Shown here in pieces: positions 25,128 to 32,000 of a DNA stretch of 32,000 nt. The notes beneath the pieces are model-generated. The model was not told the origin of the DNA. It was given only the letters and a program-made list of their open reading frames with translations, and did no database searches. Position numbers and translations under genes: made by a program. The stretch comes from Cupriavidus necator (GTDB lineage Bacteria > Pseudomonadota > Gammaproteobacteria > Burkholderiales > Burkholderiaceae): NCBI RefSeq assembly GCF_016127575.1, contig NZ_CP066019.1, forward strand, positions 960,001 to 992,000. The letters run 5' to 3'. The stretch's first letter is position 1; every line of letters begins with the position of its first letter.

Positions 25128-25687
25128 TCCCCGCCCTGGCGCCGCTGCCGTATGACACGCAAGCCTGCAACGACAGCGGCCAGGACGACCCGGCCCGCGC
25201 CATCAGCCACGATGGCGCGGCGCGGCGGGCCTTGCGCGATGCGCTGGGGCAGTTTGCCACGGGCGTTACCATCGTCACGGCCGCGGACGCCGACGGCCAG
25301 CCGGTCGGCGTCACGATCAATGCCTTTACCTCGGTGTCGCTCGCACCGCCGTTGCTGTTGTGGTGCCTGGCACGCAGCTCCGGCAGCCTGGCGGCGCTGC
25401 GTGCGGCGCCGTGCCACGCGATCAATGTGCTGGGGAGCGGGCAGCAGGCCTTGTGCCGGCGCTTCGCCGCGCGCGGTGCTGACCGCTTCGCGGGCGTCGA
25501 TTGCCGCCCCGGGCCGTTTGGCACGGTGCTGAGCGGCGGCACGCTGGCGTACTTTATCTGCCGGCACCACTCGGTGCGCGTGGTGGGCGACCACGTGATC
25601 TTTGTCGTGGAGGTGGTGGCCTATGGATCGACGCCGGGCGCGCCGCTGGTGTTCCACGCAGGCGGGTTTGAGGTACCAGCGCCTTAG
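25124..25687 (+). CDS. Flavin reductase (HpaC/NtaB-like, flavin_reduct domain)
   Basis: LRDALGQFATGVTIVTAADADGQPVGVTINAFTSVSLAPPLLLWCL...GDHVIFVVEVV is the flavin reductase family signature. The ATG overlaps the upstream TGA. Confidence 0.9.
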   Translation: MIPALAPLPYDTQACNDSGQDDPARAISHDGAARRALRDALGQFATGVTIVTAADADGQPVGVTINAFTSVSLAPPLLLWCLARSSGSLAALRAAPCHAINVLGSGQQALCRRFAARGADRFAGVDCRPGPFGTVLSGGTLAYFICRHHSVRVVGDHVIFVVEVVAYGSTPGAPLVFHAGGFEVPAP

Positions 25688-26550
25688 CCGCGCTTGCCCG
25701 CGATCACCAGCGCAATGCCGCCCAGCACCGCGGCCGCGCTCAATGCCAGCCGCAGGCTCAGGGCTTCACCGAGCAGCGCGATGCCGCCTGCCGCCGTAAT
25801 GACCGGCACGCTCAGTTGCACGGTGGCGGCGATGGCGGCCTTCAGCTGCGGCACCACGGCATACCAGATGACATAGCCCAGCCCGGAGGTGATGGCGCCG
25901 GACAACAGCGCATAGGCCAGCCCCGCGCCGTCCAGTGATCGCTGCGCCTGCATCACCGCACCCAGCGCCAGCGCCATCGGCACCGCGCGCAGGAAGTTGC
26001 CCGCGGTGGTGGAAGCGGGATCCGCGGCGCGCCTGCCGCGCAGCGAATAAACGCCCCATGCGATGCCGGCCGCGATCATCAGCAGCGAGGACGGCAGCGG
26101 CGGCGTGGCCAGCCCTGGCAGCAACAGCCATACCAGCCCGGCCAGCGCCAGGGCCAGGCCAATCCATTGCTGCAGGCGCATGGGCTCGCCGGCATAGAGG
26201 CCATAGCCGGTCATGGTGGCCTGCACCGCCGCGAACAGCAGCAGCGCGCCGGTCCCCGCGGTGAGGCGCACATAGGCAAAGGAAAAGGCCGCGGCATAGC
26301 AGAACAGTGCAAGCGCGGAAATCCAGTTGCCTTCCACCGGCGGCAGCCGTTGCGCCACGACCGTGCGCACCAACTGGTGCCGCGCCACGACGATGACCCA
26401 CAGCACCAGCGCCGCCGCGGCGACGCGGGCCAGCGTAAAGCTGGCCGCGTCGATGGTGGTGCCCTTCAGCGCGAGCCGGCACAGCAGTGAATTGCCGGCA
26501 AAGGCGAGCATCGCCAGTGCGGTCAGCACCACGGTGTTCGCGCGCGGCAT
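25684..26550 (-). CDS. EamA/DMT-superfamily transporter
   Basis: About 10 TM helices and a duplicated EamA pattern (LTALAMLAFAGNSLLCRLAL ... LLSGAITSGLGYVIWYAVVPQL). The start was chosen at MPRANTVV (26550). Confidence 0.9.
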   Translation of the reverse strand: MPRANTVVLTALAMLAFAGNSLLCRLALKGTTIDAASFTLARVAAAALVLWVIVVARHQLVRTVVAQRLPPVEGNWISALALFCYAAAFSFAYVRLTAGTGALLLFAAVQATMTGYGLYAGEPMRLQQWIGLALALAGLVWLLLPGLATPPLPSSLLMIAAGIAWGVYSLRGRRAADPASTTAGNFLRAVPMALALGAVMQAQRSLDGAGLAYALLSGAITSGLGYVIWYAVVPQLKAAIAATVQLSVPVITAAGGIALLGEALSLRLALSAAAVLGGIALVIAGKRG

Positions 26551-26581
26551 GCGGCGGGGTGGGCGGTGGGCGCTGCGTGGT

Positions 26582-27490
26582 TCAGGCTGCGGGCGGTTCG
26601 TCGCCGATGGCGAACGAGGACAGGTGCTCGATCGCCCTGACCAGTCCGGAATGATCCCAGCCCGCGCCGCCCAGCCCGCTGCAGACATTGAACAGCTGCT
26701 GGCACGACGCCGTGTTGGGCAGGCCCACGCCGAGCTGGCGCGCGGTGGACAGCGCCAGTTCCAGGTCCTTCTGGTGCAGCGCGATGCGGAAGCCCGGGTC
26801 GAAGGTGCGCTTGATCATGCGTTCGCCATGCACTTCCAGGATGCGCGAGCTGGCAAAGCCGCCCATCAGCGCCTCGCGCACGCGCGCGGGATCGGCGCCG
26901 GCGCGGGCGGCCAGCACCAGCGCTTCGCTGACCGCCTCGATGGTCAGCGCCACGATCACCTGGTTGGCCACCTTGGCCACCTGGCCGTCGCCGGCCTCGC
27001 CCACGCGCGTGATGTTCTTGCCCATCAGCTGCAGGATCGGCAGCACGCGGTCGAATACTTCCTGCTTGCCGCCGGCCATGATCGACAGCGTGCCCGCCTT
27101 GGCCCCGACCTCGCCGCCGGAGACCGGCGCATCGATATAGTCGACGCCGAGCGCTTCGATGCAGCGCGCGAACTCGCGCGTGGCGATCGGCGAGATCGAG
27201 CTCATGTCGATCACGGTAATGCCGCCTGCCGTGTCGGCAAGGCCGTCAGCGACCCCCTTCTCGCCAAACAGCACCCGCTCCACGTCGGGCGTGTCAGGCA
27301 GCATCAGGATGATGGTTTCCGACTGCTTCGCCACCTCCTCGGCGCTGGCGCAGGCTTTCACGCCGGCATCCTGGAGGTCCTGCGGCACGCCGCTGCGCGT
27401 ATGGGCGAACACGGTATGCCCGCCGTCGACAAGGTGCTGCACCATGGGCTTGCCCATCACGCCAAGTCCGATAAAGCCGATCTTGCTCAT
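26582..27490 (-). CDS. 2-hydroxy-3-oxopropionate (tartronate semialdehyde) reductase-like / 3-hydroxyisobutyrate dehydrogenase family
   Basis: MSKIGFIGLGVMGKPMVQHL...IDMSSISPIATREF...DAPVSGGEVGAKAGTLSIMAGG...GQVAKVANQVIVALTIEAVSEAL...DPGFRIALHQKDL is collinear with E. coli GarR/GlxR. Confidence 0.9.
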   Translation of the reverse strand: MSKIGFIGLGVMGKPMVQHLVDGGHTVFAHTRSGVPQDLQDAGVKACASAEEVAKQSETIILMLPDTPDVERVLFGEKGVADGLADTAGGITVIDMSSISPIATREFARCIEALGVDYIDAPVSGGEVGAKAGTLSIMAGGKQEVFDRVLPILQLMGKNITRVGEAGDGQVAKVANQVIVALTIEAVSEALVLAARAGADPARVREALMGGFASSRILEVHGERMIKRTFDPGFRIALHQKDLELALSTARQLGVGLPNTASCQQLFNVCSGLGGAGWDHSGLVRAIEHLSSFAIGDEPPAA

Positions 27491-27565
27491 GTCAGTGTCC
27501 GGTAGTGGTCAGGCGCCAGGCCGGCCGTGCGTCGCGCACGACGCCGGGTTCATCTCTGATGATAG

Positions 27566-28669
27566 TCAGTCGCACGCCAGCGCAGACAGCGGCCCCGGCG
27601 CAGGCTGCGCGCCGGCGCGCGCGGCCGCCACCCGCGCCGCGGCGTCGTCCAACTGCGCCAGCGTGCCGGCGTCGACCGGCATATGAGTGGCGCGGGCGGC
27701 GCGCCAGGCCCGTTCGGGCTCGCCCGGCAGGCGGATGCCATCCTGCCCCGGCTGCAGCCGCGAGGCCTTCATCCAGTCGGCGAACGCCGCCACCTCATGC
27801 CCGAATGACGTGCTGTTGCCCAGGCGCGCGGGATCGAACACGATCGCCAGCATGTTGTTCCAGACCGCGTGCTCATGCCGCAGCGTTTCGGGGCGGATGG
27901 TGTGGCCGCCGGTGACCGCGGCACCCAGCAACTCGCACATCACGGCCAGCACATGGCCCTTGTGTTCGCCAAAGGGCCGCAGCGCGCCTTGCGGCGCGCC
28001 GTCGGCGGGGTACATCACGGCAGGATCGGCGCTGGGCTCGCCATGCGCGTCCAGCAGGCAGCCGGGCGCCACCGGCACGCCCTTGTTGTGGGCCACACGC
28101 ACCTTGCCCAGCGCAATCGCGCTGGTGGCGAAGTCCAGCACCAGCGGCGGCTCGCCCGCCACCGGCACGCCGATGGTGAACGGGTTGGTGCCGTAGCGCG
28201 CATCGTAGCCGCCGTGCGGTGCCACGATGGGCTTGGACAGCACGTTGACGAAATGGATCGAGATCATGCCGGCGGCGGTGGCCTGCTCGGCCCAGTGGCC
28301 CACGCGCCCCAGGTGGTGCGACTGCCGCAGGCCCATCACGCAGACGCCATGCTCGCGCGCGCGGCCGATGGCCATGTTCATGGCCTGCGCCGTCACCGCC
28401 TGGCCCATGCCGCGGTTGCCGTCCAGGCTCAGCATGCTGCCGGCATCGTGCAGCACGCTGACCTGCTGGTTCAGCTGCAGCTCGTCGGCCTGCCAGGCCA
28501 GCACATAGCGCGGGATCATGCCGACGCCGTGCGAGTCATGCCCGCTCAGGTTGGCGCCGACCAGGTGGTCGGCCGTCAGGCGCGCCTCTTGCGCGCTGCT
28601 GCCCGCGGCAAGCCAGAGATCGGCCACCCACTGGTGCAGGGCGGCGGTAGGGATGCGGTGTTCGCTCAT
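27566..28669 (-). CDS. Ldh_2-family (malate/L-lactate/ureidoglycolate-type) NAD(P)H-dependent dehydrogenase
   Basis: LVGANLSGHDSHGVGMIPRY...GLRQSHHLGRVGHWAE...PHGG.DARYGTNPF...TSAIALGKV...FGEHKGHVLAVMCELL are Ldh_2 family hallmarks. Start MSEHRIP at 28669. Confidence 0.9.
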   Translation of the reverse strand: MSEHRIPTAALHQWVADLWLAAGSSAQEARLTADHLVGANLSGHDSHGVGMIPRYVLAWQADELQLNQQVSVLHDAGSMLSLDGNRGMGQAVTAQAMNMAIGRAREHGVCVMGLRQSHHLGRVGHWAEQATAAGMISIHFVNVLSKPIVAPHGGYDARYGTNPFTIGVPVAGEPPLVLDFATSAIALGKVRVAHNKGVPVAPGCLLDAHGEPSADPAVMYPADGAPQGALRPFGEHKGHVLAVMCELLGAAVTGGHTIRPETLRHEHAVWNNMLAIVFDPARLGNSTSFGHEVAAFADWMKASRLQPGQDGIRLPGEPERAWRAARATHMPVDAGTLAQLDDAAARVAAARAGAQPAPGPLSALACD

Positions 28670-28687
28670 ATCGGCCTTGGCTAGGGA

Positions 28688-28724
28688 TGAAAAAAGCCCC
28701 GTGCCGTGTGACGGCAACGGGGCT
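28688..28724 (-). terminator. Strong rho-independent terminator downstream of the SOS-box small ORF
   Basis: The minus strand reads AGCCCCGT-T-GCCGT-CAC-ACGGC-ACGGGGCT followed by TTTTTT. That is a 13-bp stem with one bulge and a U-tract. It lies 58 nt after the ORF stop and only about 20 nt before the Ldh_2 start codon. Confidence 0.7.
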
Positions 28725-28782
28725 TCATGATACGGCCGGCGCGAGCTTGGTGGCGCCGGCATGGCCGGTGATCGGCTACTGC

Positions 28783-29067
28783 TTACTGGCGCAGCGCAGC
28801 TTCGGCAGGTGACTGGCCAAGGATTTCGCGGATACGGGCCAGGTAGGTATCGCCCACCGCGCGGTGCATGCGCGCCGCCTCGGCCGCGAACTGGCGCCGG
28901 CTGGGCGGGCGGATGCCCAGGCTGCGGCAGATCGTTGACAGATAAGGCTTGCGCTGGCCGCCCAGGCGCAGCGCCGCGGTCTGCAGCGCGGCATCGCCGA
29001 TGCGACCGCGCAGCCAGGCAAGCACCTGGCGGTCATAGTCGTTTTGCACACGGATCAGGTGTTCCAT
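28783..29067 (-). CDS. Uncharacterised 94-aa protein under putative LexA control
   Basis: AGGAG lies 8 nt before ATG 29067. The frame is GC3-rich. Sequence: MEHLIRVQNDYDRQVLAWLRGRIGDAALQTAALRLGGQRKPYLSTICRSLGIRPPSRRQFAAEAARMHRAVGDTYLARIREILGQSPAEAALRQ. I recognise no family. Confidence 0.7.
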   Translation of the reverse strand: MEHLIRVQNDYDRQVLAWLRGRIGDAALQTAALRLGGQRKPYLSTICRSLGIRPPSRRQFAAEAARMHRAVGDTYLARIREILGQSPAEAALRQ

Positions 29068-29081
29068 GGACGGGACTCCTA

Positions 29082-29118
29082 CTGTTCATCCATACAGGTA
29101 CTGTAAATATATACAGTA
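29082..29118. promoter_or_regulatory. Two tandem LexA (SOS) boxes, CTGT-N8-ACAG type
   Basis: Box A is CTGTtcatccatACAG at 29082-29097. Box B is CTGTaaatatatACAG at 29101-29116, embedded in TACTGTAAATATATACAGTA (29099-29118). That 20-mer is one spacer mismatch from the Beta/Gammaproteobacterial consensus TACTGTATATATATACAGTA. Confidence 0.8.
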
Positions 29119-29133
29119 TCCAGAGGGATGCAA
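29106..29133 (-). promoter_or_regulatory. Putative sigma70 promoter of the SOS-box ORF
   Basis: The minus strand reads TTGCAT (29133-29128), a 16-nt spacer, then TATATT (29111-29106). Box B covers the -10 element and box A covers the predicted start site and leader. Confidence 0.45.
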
Positions 29134-29174: not shown

Positions 29175-29825
29175 CTACAAGCCACCCAGGGCGTTCACGG
29201 TGAACGCCAGAATCCCCATGTTGAAAAGGAACGCGGCCACGCAGTGGCCCAGGACCACCCTGCGCATGTGTGCGCCGGCGATGGTCACGTCAGAAGTCTG
29301 GAAAGTCATGCCCAGCGTGAAGCTGAAATAGAGGAAGTCCCAATAGCTGGGGTGCTGCACGCCCGGCACCTGCAGCCCGCCCTGGTCGCCGGTGGCGGTC
29401 TGGAGGTAGTAGAGATGCGCATAGTGCAGCGTGAAAACGGTGTTGGCAAAAAGCCAGGAAAGGATAAGCGTGGCGACGATCAGCGCGATGTCGGCCCAGT
29501 GCGGTGTCTCGGGGCGCGCGATCAGCGTGCCGATTGCGACCAGGATCACCATCGAGAGCAGCACGGTGATCGTGAGCAGCGCTGTGCGGTTGGCATCGTT
29601 GTGTTCCGCCGTGCGCCGCATGGCCGCAGCATCGGCGCGCAACAGCGGCAGCGCGGCGCCAAGGAAGACAAGGGCCGCGAGATCGAAGCCGATCAGCAGG
29701 GCGATGCGTGGCTCTGCGCCGAGCGCACCCGCGGCAAAGGTCGCAACGATCAATATGGCGCCGCACAGCAGAAAGCGTGCGGGTGCGATGCGCTTGCCGA
29801 TAGCGAAGCGGGCGGGTCTGTTCAT
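29175..29825 (-). CDS. DUF1345-family integral membrane protein
   Basis: The start was chosen at MNRPARF (29825). It has multiple TM helices and the motif YWDFLYFSFTLGMTFQTSDV, characteristic of DUF1345. Confidence 0.8.
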   Translation of the reverse strand: MNRPARFAIGKRIAPARFLLCGAILIVATFAAGALGAEPRIALLIGFDLAALVFLGAALPLLRADAAAMRRTAEHNDANRTALLTITVLLSMVILVAIGTLIARPETPHWADIALIVATLILSWLFANTVFTLHYAHLYYLQTATGDQGGLQVPGVQHPSYWDFLYFSFTLGMTFQTSDVTIAGAHMRRVVLGHCVAAFLFNMGILAFTVNALGGL

Positions 29826-29983
29826 GGGGTATTCATCCGGATGACCCTTCGTCAGGAAAGGAGGCTGGCCATGCGTGAATAATATCCGTGCCGTCGCGCA
29901 GTTTGTTACGCTGCATGCGCCTTTCATTTGGCGGCCTCGAGGTCGATAATGGCCCTGTGCCATGACCGGCAAGGAGAGACGCA

Positions 29984-31516
29984 ATGACCAAAAGCTCTTC
30001 CTCCACGGATAAGCCCGATCTCACCCAGGGCGTGCCGCTGGCTGACCTTGCTGACGGCGGCATGGTCACAGGCCAGGTTGGCGGCAAACCGGTCTTGCTT
30101 GTGCGTCGGGCTGATGAACTGTTTGCCATCGGTGCGACCTGTACCCACTATGGCGGGCCACTGGCGGACGGCCTGCTGGTCGGCGATACGATCCGATGTC
30201 CGTGGCATCACGCCTGCTTCAGTCTTCGCACCGGCGAGGTCCTCGGGCCGCCCGCCCAGGACGATCTGAAATGCTGGCGCGTGGAACAGCAAGACGGGAA
30301 GGCCTTCGTCCGCGACGCGCTGCCGGCGGTGCGGCCACCGAGGCTTGCCTCGGCCCGGCTCCCTGAATCCGTGGTGATCATCGGCGGCGGCGCCGCCGGG
30401 ACTGCCGCGGTCGAAACCCTGCGGCGCGAAGGCTATAGCGGCCCCGTCACGCTGCTGAGTGCCGATCGCTCATTGCCGTACGATCGGCCGAATCTGTCGA
30501 AAGACTACCTCGCCGGGACAGCAAACGCGGACTGGCTGCCAATGCGGCCACCGACGTTCTACGCGGATCACGACATCGACGTGCGCTCCGACAACCGTGT
30601 CGTCAAGCTCAGCCCCGAGCAAAAATCCGTCACGCTCTCGGACGGCAGCAACGTGAGCTACGGCGCGCTTCTGCTTGCCGTCGGTGCCGTGCCGATACGG
30701 CTGGACGTTCCTGGCGCAACCTTGCCGCACGTGAGCGTGCTCCGCACGCTGGCCGACTGCGACGCCCTGATCGCGCGTCTCGGCACGGCACGCCGATGCG
30801 TCGTGGTGGGCGCAAGCTTTATCGGGATGGAAGTCGCGGCAGCGCTGCGAACGCGAGGACTGGAAGTGCATGTTGTCGCGCCCGAAGCGCATCCGATGGA
30901 GCGGGTCCTGGGCGCGACGCTCGGCGACATGATCAAGGCGCTTCACGAATCGCACGGGGTAACGTTCCATCTCGGGGCCACGGTGGCAGAGATTCAGCCG
31001 GATCGGGTGAGATTGTCGACCGGCGCGGAGCTGGCCGCCGACCTGGTCGTGACCGGGATCGGCGTTCGCCCCGACGTGGCCTTGGCGCAGGACGCCGGCC
31101 TCGCACTGGACAAGGGCGTGGCGGTCGATGAATTCCTCCAGACCAGCGAACCTGACATCTATGCCGCGGGCGATATTGCGCGCTGGCCCGACCCGGGAAC
31201 GGGCCAGCGTATCCGCGTCGAACACTGGGTGGTCGCCGAGCGCCAGGGCGTGGTGGCAGCGCGAAATATCCTGGGACAGCGGCAACGCTTTGCGGCCGTG
31301 CCATTCTTCTGGACCCAGCACTATGATGTGGCCATCAACTACGTAGGCCACGCGGAGCAATGGGATCGTTTCGATGTCGACGGCGATCCCGCCGCGCATG
31401 ACTGTACGGTGACCTATTGGGGCAAGGATAAAAGGCTTGCGGTCGCCACGGTCGGGCGCGACCTGGCGAGCCTTCGCGCGGAGGTGGCGTTCGAGCAGGA
31501 GACGACAGGACACTAG
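29984..31516 (+). CDS. Rieske [2Fe-2S] domain fused to FAD/NAD(P)H pyridine-nucleotide-disulfide-type (ferredoxin-reductase/AIF-like) oxidoreductase
   Basis: The Rieske motif is CTHYGGPL...CPWHHACF. This is followed by VVIIGGGAAGTAA (FAD GxGxxG), CVVVGASFIGMEVAA (NAD GxGxxG) and YAAGDIARW. AAGGAGA RBS. Confidence 0.9.
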   Translation: MTKSSSSTDKPDLTQGVPLADLADGGMVTGQVGGKPVLLVRRADELFAIGATCTHYGGPLADGLLVGDTIRCPWHHACFSLRTGEVLGPPAQDDLKCWRVEQQDGKAFVRDALPAVRPPRLASARLPESVVIIGGGAAGTAAVETLRREGYSGPVTLLSADRSLPYDRPNLSKDYLAGTANADWLPMRPPTFYADHDIDVRSDNRVVKLSPEQKSVTLSDGSNVSYGALLLAVGAVPIRLDVPGATLPHVSVLRTLADCDALIARLGTARRCVVVGASFIGMEVAAALRTRGLEVHVVAPEAHPMERVLGATLGDMIKALHESHGVTFHLGATVAEIQPDRVRLSTGAELAADLVVTGIGVRPDVALAQDAGLALDKGVAVDEFLQTSEPDIYAAGDIARWPDPGTGQRIRVEHWVVAERQGVVAARNILGQRQRFAAVPFFWTQHYDVAINYVGHAEQWDRFDVDGDPAAHDCTVTYWGKDKRLAVATVGRDLASLRAEVAFEQETTGH

Positions 31517-32000
31517 GCAGGGGCGAGTGCGCGGTCCGCAAGCCCTTCAAGCAGGTCGGCCGACGGGACAAAGAACAGGCTGCCGGTGACCGCCTTGCTG
31601 AAGTCAAGCAGCCGGTCGTAATTGCCGGGCGGCAATCCGACGAACATGTTCTCGAGCATCTTCTCGATCGGCGCGGGCGAACGGGCGTAGCCGATGAAGT
31701 AGGTGCCGAACTCGCCCGCGCCAGGGCGGCCGAACGGCATGTTGTCACGCAGGATCTTCACTTCCTGCCCGTTCTCGACCAGCGTAGTCAGCGAACTGTG
31801 CGATGACGATGGCTTGACCTCTTCGTCCAGTTCGATGTCGGACAGTTTCTTGCGCCCGATGATCAGTTCCTGTGTCTCCACGGGAAGGGCGTTCCACGCG
31901 GTCATATTGTGCAGATACTTCTGCACGATGACGTAGCTGCCACCGGCAAACTCGGCATCCTCGTCGCCGATCACCGTGAAATCGACCGCCTCGCGTCCGG
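31513..32000 (-). CDS. Dyp-type peroxidase (YfeX/EfeB-like), C-terminal part; the gene continues beyond the window end
   Basis: GREAVDFTVIGDEDAEFAGGSYVIVQKYLHNMTAWNALPVETQELIIGRKKLSDIELDEEVKPSSSH...FGRPGAGEFGTYFIGY resembles E. coli YfeX (FAGGSYVFVQKYIHD..WNALPVEQQEKVIGR). The frame stays open to position 32000. Confidence 0.85.
   Translation of the reverse strand, partial: GREAVDFTVIGDEDAEFAGGSYVIVQKYLHNMTAWNALPVETQELIIGRKKLSDIELDEEVKPSSSHSSLTTLVENGQEVKILRDNMPFGRPGAGEFGTYFIGYARSPAPIEKMLENMFVGLPPGNYDRLLDFSKAVTGSLFFVPSADLLEGLADRALAPA

Follow-up and report, generated by a model that had tools for sequence, protein, structure and literature searches.

In Escherichia coli, lexA, recN and the colicin genes are controlled by double operators, in which two CTGT-N8-ACAG sites for the SOS repressor LexA lie close together over the promoter and the start. 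Such double operators occur also at harmless genes, for example at lexA itself. Small, stand-alone genes under LexA control are likewise known, and encode DinI, SulA, YebG, TisB and SidA. Here we analyse an arrangement of the same kind in a 32,000-nt stretch of Cupriavidus necator DNA (NZ_CP066019.1, positions 960,001-992,000; hereafter the window, in whose coordinates all positions are given unless stated otherwise). It precedes a gene for a basic protein of 94 amino acids (28783-29067, minus strand, among the listed open reading frames), which an exact-sequence look-up identifies as CAJ95734.1 (Q0K2P0) of C. necator H16. The two boxes are 19 bp apart from centre to centre in the window and 18-20 bp apart in most orthologues, a spacing to be compared with that of the E. 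coli double operators; the regulated gene, however, differs from lexA, recN and the colicin genes. We consider it likely that the locus is a single-gene SOS unit on chromosome 2 of C. necator H16, gene H16_B0943.

This gene has been reported before. Sanchez-Alberola et al. (2012, BMC Genomics 13:58, PMC3323433) rebuilt the LexA regulons of multi-chromosome bacteria by comparative genomics, and their Additional file 4 lists, for chromosome 2 of R. eutropha H16, the gene hypA (H16_B0943) with the sites ATACTGTATATATTTACAGTAC (-52) and CTACTGTTCATCCATACAGGTA (-11). The gene is the one in the window, and the two published sites are exactly its 22-mers at 29098-29119 and 29079-29100, respectively. 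The same study gives two-site hypA orthologues in 18 strains, including Rmet_1637, RALTA_B0767, Rpic_4716, BPSS1334, BTH_II1090 and Bxe_A3818. Its table enters the C. necator lexA locus as H16_A2280 (2281). A LexA-guarded gene of this kind is thus already described and the core claim is not new; an earlier reading of this DNA from its letters alone (the sequence-only reading) had proposed a new member of the SOS regulon, and that proposal fails, because the gene was listed with both sites in 2012. According to the 2012 study, hypA is confined to Betaproteobacteria with multiple chromosomes, where in most cases chromosome 2 or a megaplasmid carries it, and has no homologues elsewhere. In contrast, our searches detect remote homologues in Neisseria, Acinetobacter, Chromobacterium, Hydrogenophilus and metagenomes, where small plasmids and an integrative element carry them. 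What is added here is that hypA belongs to the "cryptic plasmid protein A" family, for which LexA control is the only regulatory clue.

The pattern CTGT-N8-ACAG has exactly two matches in the window, at 29082-29097 and 29101-29116, and these are separated by 3 nt. Shuffled windows contained 0.2 matches on average. The distal, strong operator (29099-29118, with its 16-mer core at 29101-29116) reads TACTGTATATATTTACAGTA as a 20-mer on the minus strand (29118-29099), and differs from the palindromic consensus TACTGTATATATATACAGTA at one spacer base. The proximal, weaker operator (29082-29097) reads CTGTATGGATGAACAG on the minus strand and spans the predicted transcript start and the leader. A scoring matrix was built from 18 published Cupriavidus LexA sites, all from other SOS genes, whose own scores have a median of 36.0 bits and a minimum of 24.7 bits. 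On this matrix the distal operator scores 38.2 bits and the proximal operator 20.4 bits, while the next best site in the window reaches 0.8 bits; there is no other LexA-like site in the 32 kb. The motif by which members of the LexA regulon are recognised in Beta- and Gammaproteobacteria is therefore present as two perfect cores in the promoter region.

A putative -35 hexamer, TTGCAT (29128-29133, minus strand), is followed after 16 nt by a putative -10 hexamer, TATATT (29106-29111, minus strand), which lies inside the spacer of the distal box. A Shine-Dalgarno sequence, AGGAG (29076-29080, minus strand), stands 8 nt ahead of the ATG (29067). On the far side of the gene, folding reveals an intrinsic terminator (around 28690-28726, minus strand), composed of a GC-rich hairpin of 15 pairs and a run of six T (six U in the transcript). 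The folded 111-nt terminator stretch has an energy of -49.5 kcal/mol, with z = -4.45 relative to shuffled controls. All of these elements had been pointed out in the sequence-only reading, and the tandem sites with their 3-nt spacing, the near-canonical 20-mer, both minus-strand signals and the strong terminator are borne out; the promoter itself we infer from conservation, not from a consensus score.

A scan of one genome per species yielded 139 relatives, and 80 loci from Cupriavidus, Paraburkholderia and Burkholderia were examined. Recognisable LexA boxes are located upstream of the gene in all 80, a strongly positive outcome for the comparative check that had been proposed for the pairing of boxes and open reading frame in Burkholderiaceae. 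In Cupriavidus, two perfect boxes lie within approximately 90 nt upstream of the start codon at every one of 47 loci, the proximal box included. At the Paraburkholderia and Burkholderia loci, whose proteins are approximately 50% identical to that of the window, one box is perfect and the other is perfect or has a single mismatch (ACTGGTTATATTTACAGTACTGTATTTATGAACAGT in the Burkholderia cepacia complex is an example), and the proximal box is present or near-perfect in most of these loci. A Ralstonia solanacearum megaplasmid locus also has one perfect and one one-mismatch box. Judged by these loci, the sites are conserved upstream of the orthologues in the manner expected of a LexA regulon member, a result that the 2012 study had reached independently.

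Aligning 19 upstream regions from four genera reveals no variation in most columns of the distal box (CTG, the central TATAT and ACAG); five of the six bases of the -10 hexamer (TATAT) likewise fall in invariant columns. A TTG is fixed 16-17 nt upstream of the -10 hexamer, as TTGCAT, TTGCCT or TTGAAA in Cupriavidus and as TTGCGG in Burkholderia, and a purine-rich, GGAG-like Shine-Dalgarno stretch is retained in the orthologues. The alignment contains no conserved sequence beyond the -35 hexamer, and for this reason promoter and operators together appear as a clear phylogenetic footprint.

Some loci depart from the common arrangement. Paraburkholderia tropica (L051) and Paraburkholderia sp. Ac-20340 (L054) have two one-mismatch boxes that overlap by 2 nt, ACTGTATATATTTACATGTATGGATATACAGG, around 50 nt upstream of the start codon; these resemble the operators of colicin genes, whereas the boxes of other loci are separated. 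At four loci of Cupriavidus and 'Ralstonia' sp. 25mfcol4.1 (L023, L025, L028 and L035) the boxes are 70-90 nt from the start codon, compared with 30-50 nt elsewhere, and the extra leader of around 40 nt holds GATGGATTGAACAG, apparently an incomplete copy of the proximal box. A 62-kb plasmid of Burkholderia sp. PAMC 28687 (L091, 4970-5240) carries a member of the Burkholderiaceae branch, unannotated in the record, with a single perfect box, CTGTATATATATACAG, 31 nt before the start codon. This gene is located between two HigB-type toxin-antitoxin pairs and near integrase genes, and may mark a route by which the LexA-controlled form moves between replicons.

The surroundings of the gene vary between genera. 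Synteny was compared on open reading frames taken from stop to stop, many of which are spurious in GC-rich genomes, and the comparison supports only that the flanks differ from genus to genus. In the Burkholderia cepacia complex, the gene downstream of the hypA orthologue is convergent. A hairpin with a T-run comparable to that of the window is found in C. necator-like orthologues, and by a strict criterion in 16 of 83 loci overall; the terminator is a feature of the C. necator group and not of the whole family. Since the flanks differ, with a terminator following the gene here and a convergent gene in the B. cepacia complex, the promoter, the operators and the open reading frame behave as one independent unit.

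The 94-residue open reading frame is a genuine protein-coding gene under purifying selection, because the median pairwise ratio of nonsynonymous to synonymous substitution rates (dN/dS) is 0.2 among ten Cupriavidus orthologues and the AlphaFold2 model of the protein has a mean predicted confidence (pLDDT) of 90.3. Its G+C content at the third codon position is 0.80; the sequence-only reading had noted a clean, GC3-rich frame. By manual count the protein has around 16 basic and 8 acidic residues, giving a charge of about +8.

LexA very probably represses the gene: as long as the DNA is undamaged, both operators would be occupied by LexA dimers. At the distal operator, LexA would cover the -10 hexamer contained in the spacer and block RNA polymerase; at the proximal operator, centred 19 bp downstream, it would cover the predicted transcription start (around 29098-29100) and the short leader ahead of the Shine-Dalgarno sequence, and would thereby add a second block. 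The short spacing of the boxes may permit cooperative binding. Upon DNA damage, RecA-stimulated self-cleavage of LexA would free the promoter, and the induced transcript, of around 400 nt, would end at the intrinsic terminator (28690-28726). Its predicted product is a mostly helical, strongly basic CppA-family protein (PF25860) of 94 amino acids. Beyond the presence and conservation of the sites, these steps are drawn from established knowledge of LexA repression.

Several observations weigh against this account. The score of the proximal box, 20.4 bits, is below that of the weakest training site, 24.7 bits. A generic promoter scan called no promoter at the box region, because the weak -35 hexamer TTGCAT agrees with TTGACA at only three of six positions. 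For Betaproteobacteria the 2012 study is purely computational, and it offers no function for hypA (PMC3323433). A full-text search with six orthologue locus tags found no published evidence that H16_B0943 or an orthologue is bound by LexA or induced by damage, and no transcriptome or proteome entry was found in the supplements of a B. thailandensis multi-omics paper. In addition, a B. cenocepacia genotoxic-stress paper holds no transcriptome. With these points taken into account, the SOS reading of the locus remains very probable. The earlier view of a self-contained unit, with LexA as its very probable repressor, is supported, but its novelty, its lack of a known family and its helix-turn-helix are not.

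A search of 5.8 billion proteins returned 69 relatives of the window protein, of around 90-130 amino acids and all with PF25860, and a 22-sequence alignment of relatives has 24 invariant positions. The window protein falls in a 90%-identity cluster whose representative, 98% identical to it, is among the relatives with a precomputed PF25860.1, and gene tables name PF25860 CPPA (cryptic plasmid protein A, after the Neisseria protein). These precomputed domains of homologues indicate that the window protein belongs to the family. The sequence-only reading had stated that the protein resembles no known family; in fact the family is catalogued in Pfam, although it is true that it is not functionally characterised, and a full-text literature search for PF25860 found nothing. 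A profile search of 1.84 billion cluster representatives gave only 171 clusters, many of them of proteins of around 80 amino acids. Searching with the window protein by tblastn led to a gene annotated "cryptic plasmid protein A" (E = 2e-5), with many further matches on Ralstonia megaplasmids, and profile searches link the chromosomal and plasmid branches.

The gonococcal cryptic plasmid was reportedly sequenced in 1985, and the CppA family is said to have gone unexplained since. In the plasmid pJD1 of N. gonorrhoeae, the mob transcript ends with cppA, a gene without an assigned function (PMC3032703). Its protein is homologous to that of the window: both have PF25860 and neither has an assigned function. 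Further NCBI entries named "cryptic plasmid protein A" come from Neisseria lactamica pNL01 and from plasmids of Hydrogenophilus, Deefgea, Chromobacterium, Acinetobacter and Ralstonia. Some distant members are located on plasmids of approximately 4 kb that carry, in this order, a replicase gene, a gene for a protein with a weak helix-turn-helix match and the CPPA gene, with a Mob_Pre relaxase gene on the opposite strand; another is on a MobA/replicase plasmid. No phage genome was matched by tblastn with a plasmid member.

On metagenome contigs (L085-L087, 4001-4255), a CPPA-family gene without a LexA box runs 14 nt into the start of a tyrosine-integrase gene, and lies directly downstream of a Prok_Ub, Prok-E2_D and Prok-JAB cluster (a bacterial ubiquitin-like system). 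A protein of 108 amino acids from a 782-bp metagenome contig (P0057) matches both PF06676 (DUF1178, C-terminal part, E = 3.6e-15) and PF25860, and could reflect either a gene fusion or faulty gene calling on so short a contig.

The two branches share the motifs N-x-RD...L-x-W-L...G and RKPY(V/L)S and a C-terminal HLA-x-IR-x-L helix. They differ in several respects. The plasmid members have approximately 80 amino acids and are found in rep/mob operons or beside toxin-antitoxin genes, whereas the window gene is chromosomal and stands alone; they mostly lack a cysteine that is invariant in the Burkholderiaceae branch; and no LexA boxes were found upstream of the plasmid and integrative-element members examined, in contrast to the window gene. 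Because the distant relatives reside on Rep/Mob plasmids and an integrase-linked element and lack LexA boxes, the most likely history of the Burkholderiaceae branch is that a plasmid-type gene became LexA-controlled in an ancestor of this family and was kept thereafter. The replicon that bears hypA is mostly, but not always, a secondary one.

The AlphaFold2 model of the window protein (from a 59-sequence alignment) shows a short N-terminal strand, helices at residues 10-23 and 25-35, a strand at KPY, a helix at 43-50 and a long helix at 57-84. The model of a plasmid member, P0182 (pLDDT 89.5), has its elements in the same order, namely a short strand, two helices, a short strand, a helix and a long C-terminal helix, and the chromosomal and plasmid branches accordingly appear to share a predicted fold, as judged by the order of the elements. 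Each of the two models, built as a monomer, has its N-terminal strand paired with the KPY segment of its own chain.

A helix-turn-helix was considered and is not supported. The candidate put forward from the sequence, the central segment KPYLSTICRSLGIRPP, corresponds in the model to the short strand and helix 43-50; helices 25-35 and 43-50 are divided by a 7-residue loop and not by a tight turn, no Pfam, NCBIfam or PHROGs helix-turn-helix model matched the protein, and Foldseek found no helix-turn-helix structure. Nor did searches of Pfam, NCBIfam and PHROGs with 15 relatives give a helix-turn-helix match at permissive thresholds. A ribbon-helix-helix, in which the N-terminal strand would have to be free to pair with that of a second subunit, was also considered, in view of the N-terminal strand-helix-G-helix pattern and the plasmid context, and no family of that type matched. 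At permissive thresholds no toxin, defence, ribbon-helix-helix or SOS family was matched, and Pfam and NCBIfam searches up to E = 1 did not bring up DinI, SulA, YebG, ImuA or TisB, in agreement with the sequence-only reading. The window protein resembles DinI, SulA, YebG, TisB and SidA in having a small, stand-alone gene under probable LexA control, but no similarity to them in sequence (Pfam, NCBIfam) or structure (Foldseek) was found.

No particular activity of the protein finds support in the searches made. Neither it nor distant relatives matched a family in Pfam (a set without PF25860), NCBIfam, PHROGs or PADLOC, and a profile search of PDB sequences gave no match. Foldseek found no related structure in the PDB for either model (best E above 4) and none in BFVD for the window-protein model; the best E-value in all these comparisons was above 3. 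Beside the plasmid-borne CppA genes there is no consistent partner, the neighbours being variable. Our best guess, a tentative one, is that the protein binds nucleic acid, as a small regulator or an accessory factor, in view of its strong positive charge and of the replication, mobilisation and integration genes that keep the family company.

Other explanations of the locus were weighed against these data. The boxes might be chance matches or decayed relics with no regulatory role. Two matches somewhere in the sequence were indeed reached in 2 of 100 window shuffles, but in the window they are adjacent to each other and on a promoter, their scores resemble those of authentic SOS sites from this genus, and they are kept in 80 of 80 loci across genera in which the proteins are only approximately 50% identical; we regard this explanation as highly improbable. 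The boxes might instead control something other than the 94-residue protein, either a non-coding or antisense transcript or, by way of read-through, the Ldh_2-family dehydrogenase gene. The dehydrogenase gene does lie on the same strand, around 110 nt past the stop codon. However, the strong terminator intervenes, the downstream gene varies by genus (a convergent one follows in the B. cepacia complex) whereas the boxes stay with the small open reading frame, that frame is itself under purifying selection, and no Rfam match was found in the window. A different target is therefore very unlikely.

Granted that LexA controls the small gene, its product might be harmful, for example an SOS-induced inhibitor of division or growth in the role of SulA, SidA or YneA, with the double operator ensuring a tight off-state. 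In favour of this, the pair of operators covers the -10 hexamer together with the transcription start, the protein shares its small size and its restriction to one lineage with known SOS division inhibitors, and it matched none of the repair families tested. Against this, lexA itself shows that a double operator can guard a harmless gene, so that the toxic or late function to which the sequence-only reading linked such operators does not follow from the evidence; no membrane segment is predicted in the protein, similarity to known inhibitors was not detected, and its plasmid relatives are apparently expressed without LexA control in rep/mob operons, which argues against intrinsic toxicity; a harmful product seems unlikely to us. 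The protein might also have kept a plasmid-type role, with a replicon of plasmid origin (chromosome 2 or a megaplasmid) or mobile elements as its target, so that replication, partition or excision is adjusted after damage. The position of distant members next to plasmid replicase genes and over the start of an integrase gene favours such a role, as do the many tblastn matches on Ralstonia megaplasmids and the confinement of the gene, in the 2012 study, to multi-chromosome Betaproteobacteria and mostly to their chromosome 2 or megaplasmid (PMC3323433). But C. metallidurans, B. xenovorans and B. phytofirmans carry the gene on chromosome 1, its neighbours in the window are metabolic genes and not replication or partition genes, and the Neisseria pJD1 gene ends the mob transcript and not the rep transcript. 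We see only a small chance that this is the role of the protein. The strict conservation of LexA control, the confidently predicted orphan fold and the mobile-element ancestry are compatible with one bolder proposal, that Burkholderiaceae CppA is a core SOS effector linking damage to the control of plasmid-derived replicons and mobile elements or to a cell-cycle checkpoint, by a mechanism unlike those of the E. coli SOS response; this we hold to be doubtful, and rather improbable as it stands.

The preferred reading, a plasmid-type gene under conserved LexA control, has some consequences of its own. This control spans Cupriavidus, Ralstonia, Paraburkholderia and Burkholderia, including the pathogens of cystic fibrosis and melioidosis. 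From its conservation across the four genera it follows that the product is probably of use to the cell following DNA damage; known SOS functions do not explain the 94-residue protein. For the plasmid family, the LexA link provides a testable starting point, and the plasmid relatives correct the 2012 statement that hypA has no homologues elsewhere. With the gene itself already described, the interest of the locus is modest overall, and resides in the link to cryptic plasmids and in a family that has no detectable structural relative.

The neighbours of the unit in the window (25684-28672, minus strand, and 29984-31974) encode an EamA transporter, a 3-hydroxyisobutyrate-dehydrogenase-like protein, the Ldh_2-family dehydrogenase (also on the minus strand), a fusion of Rieske and pyridine-nucleotide-disulphide oxidoreductase domains, and a Dyp-type peroxidase. 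A mobile-element context for the window was rejected, since these are ordinary metabolic genes and no mobile-element genes are among them. Upstream of the operator region lies a gene for a DUF1345 membrane protein (29175-29984, minus strand; E = 6.5e-56). As listed, its open reading frame opens at a TTG; the family match begins only at residue 93, and the true start codon is therefore probably further downstream.

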